Below are positions 51,613 to 54,176 of a stretch of 64,000 nucleotides of DNA, one piece after another. Positions within the stretch are counted from its first letter, which is position 1, and each line of letters starts with the position of its first letter. Origin of the DNA: Bdellovibrio sp. ArHS. Lineage in GTDB: Bacteria > Bdellovibrionota > Bdellovibrionia > Bdellovibrionales > Bdellovibrionaceae. The stretch covers positions 16,410-80,409 of the forward strand of contig NZ_JTEV01000006.1 of assembly GCF_000786105.1 (NCBI RefSeq). Reading direction: 5' to 3'. A program made the translations under genes and the position numbers. The notes beneath the pieces are model-generated. The model was not told the origin of the DNA. It saw nothing but the letters and a program-made list of their open reading frames with translations, and did not search any database.

Positions 51613-52407
51613 ATGGCTGCACCAAATCCATTCGAGAAACAGACCCCCATTCCCGGAGTGAAACATATTATTGCCGTTTCTTCAGGCAAAGGCGGCGTCG
51701 GCAAAAGCACCGTCGCGACCAATATCGCTATGGCTTTAGGCAAAAAGAGCCGTGTGGGTCTGCTGGACGCGGATATTTACGGTCCAAGTATTCCTCGCAT
51801 GTTAGGAACTTTGGGACAAAAGCCGCAAATCAATCCCGAAACGAACCAACTTGAGCCGATCACTCGGTACGGAATTAAGTTGATGAGCATCGGTTTCCTA
51901 GTCGATGAAAATGCGGCTGTCGTATGGCGCGGCCCGATGCTTTTTAAAGCCATGGATCAGTTTCTTCGCGATGTAAACTGGGGCGAGCTGGACTATCTGG
52001 TTGTCGATCTTCCCCCTGGCACCGGCGACATTCAACTGACATTGGCCCAAAAGGTTCCAGTCAGTGGCGCGGTTGTGGTTTCCACTCCGCAGAACGTGGC
52101 CTTGCTTGATGTAAAAAAAGCCGTCGACATGTTCGAGCGTGTGGGTGTGCCTTTGTTAGGCATGGTTGAAAACATGGCTTATATGATCAATCCTGCGAAC
52201 GGTGAAAAAATCCAATTGTTCCCTAAGGGAGAAATGGACACTTATGCTCACGCCAAAGGAATGAAGAAATTGGGAGCTGTGCCTTTCAATCCTTCCGTGG
52301 GGCTGGCTTGCGAAGCCGGCATTCCTATTGTTGAAGCCAACAGCAACGGCGCTGAGGCGCAAGAGTTCATGGCCATTGCCAACAATATTCGCGAAATTCT
52401 TCCTTAA
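51613..52407 (+). CDS. mrp: Mrp/NBP35/ApbC-family P-loop ATPase lacking the CxxC motif
   Basis: SSGKGGVGKST, LDADIYGPS, WRGPM, VDLPPGTGD, STPQ, ENM; no N-terminal domain. Confidence 0.95.
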   Translation: MAAPNPFEKQTPIPGVKHIIAVSSGKGGVGKSTVATNIAMALGKKSRVGLLDADIYGPSIPRMLGTLGQKPQINPETNQLEPITRYGIKLMSIGFLVDENAAVVWRGPMLFKAMDQFLRDVNWGELDYLVVDLPPGTGDIQLTLAQKVPVSGAVVVSTPQNVALLDVKKAVDMFERVGVPLLGMVENMAYMINPANGEKIQLFPKGEMDTYAHAKGMKKLGAVPFNPSVGLACEAGIPIVEANSNGAEAQEFMAIANNIREILP

Positions 52408-52418
52408 AAAAATTCATC

Positions 52419-52453
52419 GGTGAAGAGGTCTTCTTCCTCTTCACCTTCTTTTT
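52419..52453 (+). terminator. intrinsic terminator after mrp
   Basis: GGTGAAGAGG/CCTCTTCACC stem followed by TTCTTTTT. Confidence 0.85.
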
Positions 52454-52548
52454 CTGGCCAAAATCGTTTCATCCTAAAACAAAAAGTCTTGCTGTTTCTC
52501 AGACAGAAACGGGATTCCGACGTATTTTGAGAATCGAAAGTGCCCCCC

Positions 52549-52578
52549 TTGAAAATAAAACTTTGGTCGAGCTATCCT
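52549..52578 (+). promoter_or_regulatory. sigma70-like promoter of the riboswitch RNA
   Basis: TTGAAA-18 bp-TATCCT, predicting a start near 52585. Confidence 0.5.
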
Positions 52579-52657
52579 AAAAGAGTTGAAACCGCAGGGC
52601 TCGGAAGACTTACCTTCGAGTAAGTGAATGCTTTAGGGCCAGCTAAGGAGGACACAG

Positions 52658-52702
52658 ATGAAGAATCGTATTCACGATCATCATGATGAACCACCGAAGT
52701 GA
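52658..52702 (+). CDS. candidate 14-aa peptide MKNRIHDHHDEPPK
   Basis: Perfect SD TAAGGAGG (52644-52651) 6 nt before ATG. Confidence 0.45.
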   Translation: MKNRIHDHHDEPPK

Positions 52703-52833
52703 CGAGGCGTCACCAGGATTATTACGCAGAGGTTCCGGGTTCAGGCCTCTTAAAAAAATGATGAACTGGTTGGATCTATCGAATAACTCATAAGGAGGTT
52801 CCTAGGGTTATACTCGTTAGGATTTAGATCCTT

Positions 52834-52919
52834 CCTTTGCCTCAAGGCAAACCGTCGGAAACGGCGGGACGCAAAGCTAGAGGGGTGTCGGTTCGTCCAC
52901 GCCAGCCAGCTGCCAAAGG
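52834..52919 (+). promoter_or_regulatory. cyclic di-GMP-I (GEMM) riboswitch aptamer
   Basis: GGCAAA-CCGTCG-GAAA-CGGCGG-GACGCAAAGC...CAGCCAGCTGCC core; P1 CCTTTG/CAAAGG; GNRA-capped P2. Confidence 0.93.
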
Positions 52920-52949
52920 TGAGTCACCTGAGGAATCAGAGGTGTGCAT

Positions 52950-52994
52950 ATGGAAGGTATCAATACATACAAGGATTGGTTTCATTCCCCTTAG
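52950..52994 (+). CDS. candidate riboswitch-controlled 14-aa peptide MEGINTYKDWFHSP
   Basis: SD GAGGT (52939-52943) 6 nt before ATG; 30 nt after aptamer P1; stop codon runs into the terminator. Confidence 0.55.
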   Translation: MEGINTYKDWFHSP

Positions 52995-53034
52995 CCTGTG
53001 AGTTATCAATGACGATTCCTCGCAGGCACTTTTG
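52994..53034 (+). terminator. intrinsic terminator of the riboswitch RNA
   Basis: GCCTGTGAG/CTCGCAGGC stem followed by ACTTTTGTTTTT. Confidence 0.75.
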
Positions 53035-53057
53035 TTTTTGGGGATCTCGTTTTCTAA

Positions 53058-54176
53058 TTATTTACAGATAGAATAGCCGAATGCACCCGCCAGTTTATAG
53101 CGATTGGTATCTTCTTTAAAATTCTGTCGTGAGCGAAGAAAGCCCACACCCTCTTTCAAGTGAGAAACAAAGTCTTTGGCCTCGTAAGCCATGCCCGTCA
53201 AATAAACCAAGGACGCCGTCTTAGCGCCGAAACTGGCTTTTTGTGAACAACCTAAAAAGGCCGCCATGATATTGTGCCTGTTCCAATCATTCACGCTGTA
53301 GCCATACAGAGTGATTTTGATCTGATTCTTGTCGACCAACGAGCGAAAGACCATGTAGTTGTATTTGGCGGTTTGTAAATCTGAAAACTCAGCAAAGATC
53401 TGCTCTTTGGATTTTGGCGAATTCAAATCCTGCACCAAAAGGCGATCCTCAATCCCCTGTAACCAGCCCGTTAAACCCGAAGGGCCACTGCTGCCCATGA
53501 CGGTTAAGGCCGATAGAAGCAAAGCCGGATTGTCCTGCTGGAACTCTTCTAGGAACGCTTCTTCCAGCTTCAATTCGCCACCGATAACGGTTCGAGAAAG
53601 TTTTGCTAAAAGAGCATAAGAATAATCTAAAGACGTTGGCGTCAATGGCTTCTGAAGCTTTTCAAATTGTTTCAAAACCAGACGGTCCCCGGCAAAGCAG
53701 GCGTTGGAATCCACGTTCGACAATTCCCCTTTTAGGCGAACGCGATAACAAGAAGGCTCTAGGCTTTTCCACCAAAGGCGATTGAGAGGATTTCTGACGT
53801 TTTCAGTATTTTCAGAGAAAAAGAAAGGTTGGCGAATGGACTGAATCTGCGCAGTCCCACGGCATTTTTGTTCCACGCTGAGAGAGTTTTTAATGCCGCC
53901 AATAAGTTCATAAATAATTTTTCGCTGCTGCGAAAGAATCTCAGGACTTTCCAAGGAAGTTCGCGACAGGTATCCCGTCAATGGGACCGCTTTAGCATGG
54001 AAGTCAAAAGCGGAACAATTTTTCAACAAAGAAACTCGTTGTGCCAGAATCAGATTCAACCGATCTATCAAGGCACTGTTTTGAAGCTGTTGAGTCTCTT
54101 CAAAAGAAACAGCCCGCCCGGCAAAAGCCAGGCAGGATGAAAAAAGAATGAAGAAAGTGAGTAGAGCACTTTTCAT
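53058..54176 (-). CDS. hypothetical secreted protein
   Basis: Signal peptide MKSALLTFFILFSSCLAFA; 372 aa; several Cys; no family recognised. Confidence 0.75.
   Translation of the reverse strand: MKSALLTFFILFSSCLAFAGRAVSFEETQQLQNSALIDRLNLILAQRVSLLKNCSAFDFHAKAVPLTGYLSRTSLESPEILSQQRKIIYELIGGIKNSLSVEQKCRGTAQIQSIRQPFFFSENTENVRNPLNRLWWKSLEPSCYRVRLKGELSNVDSNACFAGDRLVLKQFEKLQKPLTPTSLDYSYALLAKLSRTVIGGELKLEEAFLEEFQQDNPALLLSALTVMGSSGPSGLTGWLQGIEDRLLVQDLNSPKSKEQIFAEFSDLQTAKYNYMVFRSLVDKNQIKITLYGYSVNDWNRHNIMAAFLGCSQKASFGAKTASLVYLTGMAYEAKDFVSHLKEGVGFLRSRQNFKEDTNRYKLAGAFGYSICK

Follow-up and report, generated by a model that had tools for sequence, protein, structure and literature searches.

A probable merRNA orthologue of Bdellovibrio sp. 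ArHS combines a cyclic di-GMP-I aptamer with a conserved candidate micro-ORF

The stretch of DNA analysed here (64,000 nucleotides, nt, of Bdellovibrio sp. ArHS, contig NZ_JTEV01000006.1, positions 16,410 to 80,409 of the forward strand, referred to as the window) contains a 650-nt gap between an mrp/apbC-type gene on the forward strand (51613-52407) and an open reading frame (ORF) on the reverse strand (53058-54176), and this gap holds a candidate locus of the merRNA. Karunker et al. (2013) described the merRNA as a 445-nt attack-phase RNA of Bdellovibrio bacteriovorus HD100, encoded at 1,073,741-1,074,185 on the minus strand, with a read coverage approximately equal to that of all the protein-coding genes together, and containing a riboswitch for cyclic di-GMP (c-di-GMP), for which the RNA was proposed to be a store (PMC3627812). 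That study treated the RNA as non-coding, restricted its search for a conserved frame to the sequence behind the riboswitch, and saw conservation only within the genus Bdellovibrio (PMC3627812). The initial annotation of the window, made from the letters alone, had cited the length, the c-di-GMP riboswitch, the massive attack-phase expression, and the proposed store, all of which agree with the published account (PMC3627812), and had taken the locus to be a probable merRNA homologue, a view borne out by the alignment to the HD100 coordinates, the presence of mrp upstream, and a blast match at 85-86% identity.

In the pairwise alignment, the published ends of the merRNA map to positions 52595 and 53044 of the window (forward strand), with the 445 nt of HD100 projecting onto 450 nt at an identity of approximately 85-86%, and with blast matching 1-442 of the 450 nt at 86%. 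In genome G012, which we take to be B. bacteriovorus HD100, the match to the RNA of the window runs from 1,073,746 to 1,074,185 on the minus strand, and thus coincides with the published merRNA coordinates. Given this coincidence, together with the identity of approximately 85% and the mrp neighbour found in common, the locus at approximately 52585/52595-53040 is very likely the merRNA orthologue of another Bdellovibrio species, and an autonomous c-di-GMP-I riboswitch RNA. The joint claim, of a merRNA orthologue that is also a stand-alone RNA predicted to bind c-di-GMP, appears almost certain.

The RNA was matched in 170 of the 182 genomes and 37 of the 41 genera of the GTDB family, and approximately 75 relatives, out of the approximately 170 family genomes with a match, were aligned or read. 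The closest relatives are B. bacteriovorus s4 and Bdellovibrio sp. HCB117 (94% identity over a 621-nt query and 98% over the RNA), and the exact-word matches to one box of the RNA fall almost solely in Bdellovibrio records. Outside the genus, the match mostly covers positions 197-443 of the query, which include a purine-rich box (box 2, below), the aptamer, the 3' tail, and the terminator. The RNA of the window resembles that of HD100 in its sequence (approximately 85%), its length, its mrp neighbour, the placement of the aptamer in the 3' half, and the possession of its own promoter and terminator, but it belongs to another species, and the upstream micro-ORF, the pseudoknot, and the family-wide 3' module seen here are different from the published description (PMC3627812). 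These three features, together with the mrp linkage, are new in relation to that account.

The c-di-GMP-I aptamer lies at 52836..52917 (forward strand), where cmscan aligned the full model (1-87) of the Rfam family RF01051 and scored it at 60.6 bits (gathering score, 35; E = 2.2e-09). This is the only Rfam family above threshold in the 64-kb window, and it is present as a single copy in the 3.54-Mb genome. The paired region P1 joins 52834-39 with 52914-19, P2 (52852-67) carries a GAAA loop, and P3 extends over 52875-52911; in a 30-sequence alignment, all six pairs of P2 present double changes, and P3 also covaries. Model position 11, an unpaired G immediately 5' of the two G-C pairs closing the P2 side, is equivalent to G20 of the Vc2 aptamer and corresponds to G 52846, which is invariant in 30 orthologues, as is A 52873, the equivalent of A47, whereas the equivalent of C92 was assigned to C 52913 by position only. 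A G at position 20 of Vc2 indicates c-di-GMP, whereas an A indicates 3',3'-cyclic GMP-AMP (3',3'-cGAMP), and the G found here fits c-di-GMP rather than 3',3'-cGAMP as the predicted ligand. The distinction matters because Bdellovibrio makes both of these dinucleotides through Bd0367 (bioRxiv 10.64898/2026.01.30.702909).

The GAAA loop of P2 is present, and the CUAA consensus of the receptor in P3 is represented by a 4-nt gap in the alignment, with the distal part of P3 being variable and shortened to a few pairs in several orthologues. The docking of a GNRA loop of P2 into an 11-nt-type receptor in P3 is common in the c-di-GMP-I class, but does not define it. The aptamer, the G at the position of Vc2 G20, and the P3 lacking the usual tetraloop receptor had each been read from the letters in the initial annotation, and all three are reproduced in the model alignment. 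The variant family c-di-GMP-I-GGC (RF03167) scored 53.9 bits at 52837-52918 under permissive filters, short of its threshold of 59. When the clan was resolved by E-value under these same filters, RF03167 took the place of RF01051.

The 5' half of the RNA contains a very short candidate coding frame. A Shine-Dalgarno (SD) sequence, SD1 (AAGGAGG, 52645..52651, forward strand), which is kept in all the orthologues, lies 6 nt before the start of a small ORF of 14 codons, sORF1 (MKNRIHDHHDEPPK, 52658..52702, forward strand), which terminates at a UGA in the context AAG UGA CG. This frame was found in 35 of 35 Bdellovibrio loci, and also in many other genera. Within the genus, its ATG and TGA are the same at every locus, indels are limited to two 6-nt deletions that arose independently, and 26 nucleotide versions encode 15 peptides, with variety in the codons for Arg (CGT/CGA/CGG/AGA), Ile (ATT/ATA/ATC), Asp (GAT/GAC), and Pro (CCA/CCG). 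Over the last nine codons, the proportion of synonymous differences (pS) is 0.68 and that of nonsynonymous differences (pN) is 0.20, a ratio of 0.30 in frame, against a pN/pS of 1.20 when these nucleotides are read in the +1 frame, with the +2 frame being rich in stops, and the entropy peaks at the third codon positions (8.3 bits versus 5.3 and 4.4). These pN/pS values were obtained pairwise from the Bdellovibrio sORF1 sequences and 11 sequences of other genera, a procedure which ignores shared ancestry, and despite which the effect size and the difference from the frame controls are large.

A codon-degenerate search for the pattern D-H-x-D-[KE..]-x-P-K-stop recovered it once per genome in 51 genomes of six genera, with no matches in the reversed control, and at every place compared with the match coordinates, the pattern sits just upstream of the aptamer match. 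The conserved end of the frame is D-H-x-D-x-x-P-K-UGA, and the variants in further genera include MRRRKFDHRDKSPK, MKRIHDHNDKAPK, MYRRIFDHHDVPPK, and MKEKIHDFHDEPFK. Given the invariant start and stop codons, the synonymous variety, the low in-frame pN/pS, and the specificity of the pattern, sORF1 is a strong candidate frame that is very probably translated, and its amino-acid sequence, which is under purifying selection, very probably matters. As a short, SD-led ORF that is conserved at the amino-acid level, sORF1 shares one feature of the regulatory leader and arrest peptides (the mgtL, TnaC, and his leader type). The chances appear evenly balanced that it acts in cis, as a frame of the leader or arrest type, rather than through a free peptide, a function that is equally possible.

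Other families of the order have, before their mrp-linked aptamers, SD-led frames of different sequence that end in runs of proline, which read MAKVKIFRLDPPPE, MKLHSKQWNLFPPPI, MPSKSMWISDPPPE, ...RLDSPPK, and MVTVLCQISESPP upstream of the aptamers of loci L037-L041. At one of these loci (L038), two proline-ended micro-ORFs are arranged in tandem. The context AAG UGA CG at the end of sORF1 (52699-52706) is retained even in genera that lack the hairpin that surrounds it in Bdellovibrio, and UGA with C as the next base is a weak stop signal in Escherichia coli. An extension of sORF1 past its UGA by readthrough or frameshifting was rejected on the basis of indels immediately downstream that are not multiples of three (such as a 1-nt indel in the stop hairpin), and histidine attenuation through the HDHHD peptide was also set aside, given that several genera keep one His only.

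The structure of the RNA was tested in an alignment of 30 Bdellovibrio sequences (alignment A1), using only local folds, since the minimum free energy fold of the whole RNA was judged to be unreliable for a length of 450 nt. The structure comprised the 5' domain, the hairpin at the stop codon of sORF1, a pseudoknot, the hairpin beside box 2, the Rfam aptamer with P1, a hairpin that includes a second SD sequence (SD2), and the terminator. Standard pairs occupy 96.2% of the cells, in comparison with 30-42% when the partners are slid by one to three columns, 34 pairs are changed on both sides, and none of 500 shuffles reached any of the observed measures. Of the many short hairpins perceived in the initial annotation, covariation backs the 5' hairpin, the stems of the pseudoknot, P2, P3, the SD2 hairpin, and the terminator.

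The 5' stem-loop domain (52598..52640, forward strand) consists of an outer helix, GGCUC/GGGCC, and a hairpin, AGACUUAC/GUAAGU, in which five of the six pairs are changed on both sides. The stop codon of sORF1 lies within a hairpin, GUGACG-AGG-CGUCAC (52699..52713, forward strand), which is well conserved in its three outer pairs but not in its inner ones (76% paired overall), and which is lost in several other genera, where AAGUGACG is retained. This hairpin is followed by an H-type pseudoknot (52728..52766, forward strand), in which the first stem, S1, joins AGAGGU 52728-33 with GCCUCU 52745-50 (four of the six pairs changed on both sides), and the second, S2, joins GUUCA 52739-43 with UGAAC 52762-66 (five of the six pairs), with an A-rich loop, L3, at 52751-61. 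No alternative pairing with sORF1 was found in this arrangement of a stop codon within a hairpin and a pseudoknot behind it, and there is no downstream gene. This pseudoknot fold, formed by unrelated sequences, can also be drawn, by eye, in two other genera (L074, L069).

The pseudoknot was also compared with the PreQ1-I family (RF00522), which was rejected at 15.8 bits against a threshold of 39, with only P1, UUC, and the A-tail matching, and because the loop L1 is freely variable among the orthologues and the 3' strand of P1 is preceded by a G, rather than a C. An extra hairpin is inserted into the loop of the 5' hairpin in four orthologues (L018, L020, L021, and L023; columns 33-61 of A1), and a whole hairpin is inserted between the pseudoknot and box 2 in L024 (columns 246-271). 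These insertions are lineage-specific, and extra structure seems to be accommodated at both sites.

Between the pseudoknot and the aptamer lie the sequences that may compete with the closure of P1. Box 2 is an SD-like sequence, CAUAAGGAGG (CAAAGGAGG in most relatives), at 52789..52798 (forward strand), with no start codon after it, and its AAGGAGG does not vary within the family or in the order's other families. It is followed by a hairpin, UCCUAG...UUAGGA (52800..52822, forward strand; 98% paired, with double changes in two pairs), which separates it from an invariant pyrimidine strand, CCUUCCUUUGCC (52830..52841, forward strand), located approximately 40 nt downstream of box 2. Complementarity and energy point to four possible partners for this strand, which are box 2 itself, which copies the 3' strand of P1 and is predicted to pair with 52830-52839 (the pairing P0); GGCAAA at 52846-51, in a hairpin, UUUGCC-UCAA-GGCAAA, that buries the equivalent of G20 and the adjoining two pairs; CAAAGG at 52914-19, which forms P1 with CCUUUG, the 5' half supplied by the pyrimidine strand; and GGAAGG at 52953-58, which is also codons 2-3 of a putative second frame, ORF2.

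Both RNAalifold and free folding prefer the GGCAAA and GGAAGG pairings over the aptamer, and the enforced aptamer fold lies 4.5-6.5 kcal/mol above the free folds in the three intervals that were folded, a gap that, by these energies, a nanomolar ligand can pay. A ligand-dependent switch from P0 or the hairpin to P1 is slightly more likely than not. A proof of P0 by covariation was sought and discarded, given that only one-sided C-to-U changes are found within the family, and a triple compensation relative to one distant family was also discarded, as it may be a register shift of the purine motif. The sequence GGAUCUA at 52772-52778 can pair with UAGAUCC at 52825-52831 (7 base pairs), enclosing box 2 and its hairpin, and is the best duplex partner of the region of the pyrimidine box within the genus.

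On the 3' side of the aptamer, the hairpin CAC-CUGA-GGAA-UCAG-AG-GUG (52925..52944, forward strand) holds SD2 (GAGGUG) in its 3' arm, and presents a G-C to A-U double change in five sequences. The AGGUG at 52917-21, which adjoins P1, can compete for CACCU, and this pairing is present in the free folds. Five nt after SD2 lies the AUG of the putative ORF2, of 14 codons (MEGINTYKDWFHSP, 52950..52994, forward strand), whose stop codon, UAG, overlaps the terminator stem by its last base. The frame of ORF2 is kept at spacings of 30, 33, 36, 39, 42, 45, and 57 nt between the AUG and the 3' box described below, and is broken at 28, 38, 40, 41, and 44 nt, with the stop being lost in one Bdellovibrio clade. 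ORF2 is not established as a clear coding gene.

These features are relevant to the reading of the RNA as a conventional translational riboswitch, in which the aptamer would control ORF2 by hiding SD2 or the start region. The short distance between SD2 and the AUG, the covarying hairpin that adjoins the 3' strand of P1, the pairing of GGAAGG with the CCUUCC that flanks P1 in the free fold, and the persistence of the frame through seven length classes are all consistent with this arrangement, but the frame is broken in the five other classes and loses its stop in one clade, the middle of the peptide is not conserved, and no synonymous change is seen, in the alignments read, in the codons GAU UGG UUU CAU UCC CCU, whereas these codon families are freely variable in sORF1. 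Control of ORF2 by the aptamer is therefore possible, but doubtful.

The end of ORF2, encoded by these same six codons, is part of a nearly invariant 3' box, GGAUUGGUUUCAUUCCCCU (52973..52991, forward strand), whose 16-nt core, AUUGGUUUCAUUCCCC, shows no differences among the 30 sequences of A1. In other genera, the box is close to identical. The lack of synonymous change in these codons, in the alignments and sequences read, at the same time as the Asp and His codons of sORF1 vary freely, indicates that the 3' box is constrained as RNA. This nearly invariant, single-stranded-looking stretch before a terminator is the usual layout of a small RNA with a seed, and the anti-SD-like UUCCCCUU could pair with ribosome-binding sites, and the RNA may thus act in trans, with either the 3' box or the pyrimidine box as a seed for messenger RNAs (mRNAs) or a protein site, the exposure of which would be gated by the aptamer. 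The search of the genome recovered no long complementary target of the 3' box, the only match besides the gene itself having three mismatches and being no better than the single match of the reversed control, a result with which short seeds are compatible. A trans-acting role is rather unlikely on this evidence.

The proposal of 2013, a pure sponge or store of c-di-GMP, would require only the aptamer and its abundance, with the remainder of the molecule being a stability scaffold. The aptamer belongs to a high-affinity class, and its abundance in HD100 is extreme (PMC3627812), and the 5' stem-loop, the pseudoknot, and the terminator could merely protect the RNA. A scaffold, however, leaves the codon-level selection on sORF1 (pN/pS 0.30) unexplained, as well as the invariant SD-like boxes and the 3' box, which is nearly invariant across the sampled genera. 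The store is the only proposal that has been made, and in 2019 it was referred to as never directly tested (bioRxiv 10.1101/617340), with no later test being found in the literature search. A pure sponge appears unlikely, and the suggestion in the initial annotation that the RNA has an internal organisation that such a sponge would not need is supported by the coding-type micro-ORF, the covarying pseudoknot, and the competing pairing boxes.

The locus is also delimited by its own signals. In the alignment of 35 Bdellovibrio loci, conservation begins sharply at approximately 52518 and ends just after the T run of the terminator. The abrupt onset coincides with an upstream promoter box, ACGTATTTTGAGAATCG (52518..52536, forward strand), conserved in the 35 Bdellovibrio genomes, of which TTGAGAAT recurs in other genera, and which may function as an UP element or bind an activator. 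A sigma-70-type promoter follows (52549..52578, forward strand), with a -35 TTGAAA, an 18-nt spacer, and a -10 TATCCT, and is nearly invariant in the genus. The merRNA promoter of HD100 suffices to drive reporters from plasmids, and ranked first in strength among the native attack-phase promoters tested (bioRxiv 10.1101/2025.05.17.654431). This promoter is a standard Bdellovibrio expression tool, and the sequence right behind it is therefore of practical use. The intrinsic terminator (52994..53039, forward strand) has a stem of 9+3 pairs, GCCUGUGAG/CUCGCAGGC at 52994-53027, with double changes in eight pairs and 99% pairing, followed by the T run, CTTTTGTTTTT, at 53029-53039, and was missed by a simple terminator scan because its loop is of 16 nt.

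The mrp/apbC-type gene upstream (51613-52407, forward strand) encodes a P-loop ATPase (Pfam ParA/NUBPL, 6.5e-96), and its own terminator, a 10-pair stem with six G-C pairs followed by TTCTTTTTCT (52419..52454, forward strand), separates it from the RNA gene. In HD100, in most Bdellovibrio genomes, and in other genera of the family, the gene immediately precedes the RNA in the same orientation, as it does in four of the five genomes sampled from the order's other families, with 58-92% amino-acid identity (L003-L041, L068-L079), and this linkage between mrp and an aptamer RNA is deep. On the downstream side, the convergent ORF of 372 codons (53058-54176, reverse strand; no Pfam match) was found at the equivalent site only in the genome of the window among the 55 loci compared by tblastn, being missing from this place even in relatives that are 98% identical over the RNA, and it looks like a recent, lineage-specific arrival. 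The promoter, the terminator, the convergent position of the next long ORF, and the lack of a conventional downstream gene, all noted in the initial annotation, stand on this evidence, and the control of the downstream gene was ruled out by the non-conservation of that gene. The unit is self-contained, with a conserved promoter, approximately 450 nt of RNA, its own terminator, and no conserved gene behind it.

The kept linkage, across the family and in most of the other families sampled, would suit a cis element of a neighbour, such as a 3' untranslated region or processing product of mrp, and the stop of ORF2 abuts the terminator stem as in attenuators, an arrangement that would suit a readthrough switch antisense to the convergent gene. 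The terminator of mrp, a conserved promoter block that works alone, and a downstream gene that differs even among the closest relatives argue against this alternative, which is very improbable.

The reading proposed here takes the RNA as a ligand-responsive molecule that engages ribosomes. It would reach very high levels in the attack phase, as its HD100 counterpart does, and would bind c-di-GMP, which would close P1 against three built-in competitors, box 2, the UUUGCC/GGCAAA hairpin, and GGAAGG. As the closure of P1 competes for a single pyrimidine strand, the ligand would alter the exposure of the SD-like purine boxes and the 3' sequences, coupling the c-di-GMP level to the engagement of ribosomes, or translation, on the RNA, and would also be buffered. 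A ribosome on sORF1 would remodel or protect the downstream RNA, in the manner of a cis-acting leader or arrest frame, the alternative being a free micropeptide. The buffering of c-di-GMP would come with abundance, leaving the anatomy unexplained.

In its strongest form, the merRNA would be a c-di-GMP-gated, ribosome-engaging RNA, rather than a passive sponge, and this version is speculative and decidedly unlikely as it stands. It would be the attack-phase transcript of highest abundance after rRNA, and would combine a micro-ORF that has a perfect SD lead, a proline-rich end prone to stalling, and a weak UGA-C stop with a second strong SD sequence, devoid of a start codon, that is freed as c-di-GMP closes P1. 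Ribosomes would be parked or titrated, or an abundant 14-residue His/Asp peptide would be produced, in the non-growing predator, and the change in c-di-GMP on contact with the prey would release them. If true, translational capacity would be coupled directly to a second messenger as the predator passes from attack to growth.

Several observations weigh against the reading proposed here. In the clade of HD100, sORF1 reads MRTHEHHDDELK, with the prolines lost, and sORF1 was not found in one sampled genus (g60), so that an arrest role would not be universal. The competing boxes are either invariant or changed on one side, from C to U, with no covariation for P0 versus P1, and the case for the switch is thus built on complementarity, position, and energy. 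Projected onto the window, the published 5' end falls at 52595, which is 17 nt past the -10, whereas the geometry of the promoter predicts approximately 52585. The literature search found nothing on small ORFs or ribosome profiling in Bdellovibrio.

Several known systems share part of this organisation. The mgtA and mgtCBR leaders of Salmonella sense Mg2+, and their proline-codon-rich ORFs, mgtL and mgtP, select between alternative stems. By analogy, these leaders are the closest mechanistic precedent for a riboswitch with a proline-rich leader ORF, as they also unite a ligand-sensing structure and a short proline-rich ORF in one RNA, although they control downstream genes, whereas nothing conserved lies downstream here, and the ligand is c-di-GMP. 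Dual-function RNAs, such as SgrS/SgrT, RNAIII/hld, and SR1/SR1P, which are both regulators and mRNAs, are similarly abundant, structured RNAs that encode a very small peptide, but we know of no riboswitch aptamer in any of these three, unlike the merRNA. The STAB-SD of the cryIIIA leader of Bacillus thuringiensis is a strong SD sequence without a start codon that is stabilising in Gram-positive bacteria. Like box 2, it lies in an abundant and very stable RNA, but a stabilising role of box 2 is only an idea, and box 2 differs further in copying the 3' strand of P1. In Vibrio cholerae, Vc2 stabilises an upstream small RNA (bioRxiv 10.1101/617340), and this is, by analogy, the closest precedent for a c-di-GMP-I aptamer that acts on upstream RNA, given that the aptamer is on the 3' side and the upstream part is the product, so that the ligand could act on stability instead of a downstream gene. 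Vc2 differs in that it also precedes tfoY, and in that no micro-ORF has been described there.

The merRNA has been unexplained since 2013, as a riboswitch with nothing to regulate, although it is as abundant as all the mRNAs together. It can now be seen as a class of RNA that is conserved family-wide and linked to mrp, with a translated-looking frame of 14 codons and competitors for the closure of the aptamer, an anatomy that makes its function experimentally approachable, which abundance alone never did.

The copy number of the element also varies among the relatives. Several genomes of the family have two aptamer matches, as in G133, where they are 1.4 kb apart. In one Bdellovibrio genome, G020, two extra copies of the 3' module, of approximately 140 nt and 94% identical, are found on other contigs (C69:4207-4347 and C89:16903-17042), and hold only the end of the aptamer, the ORF2/3' box, and the terminator.

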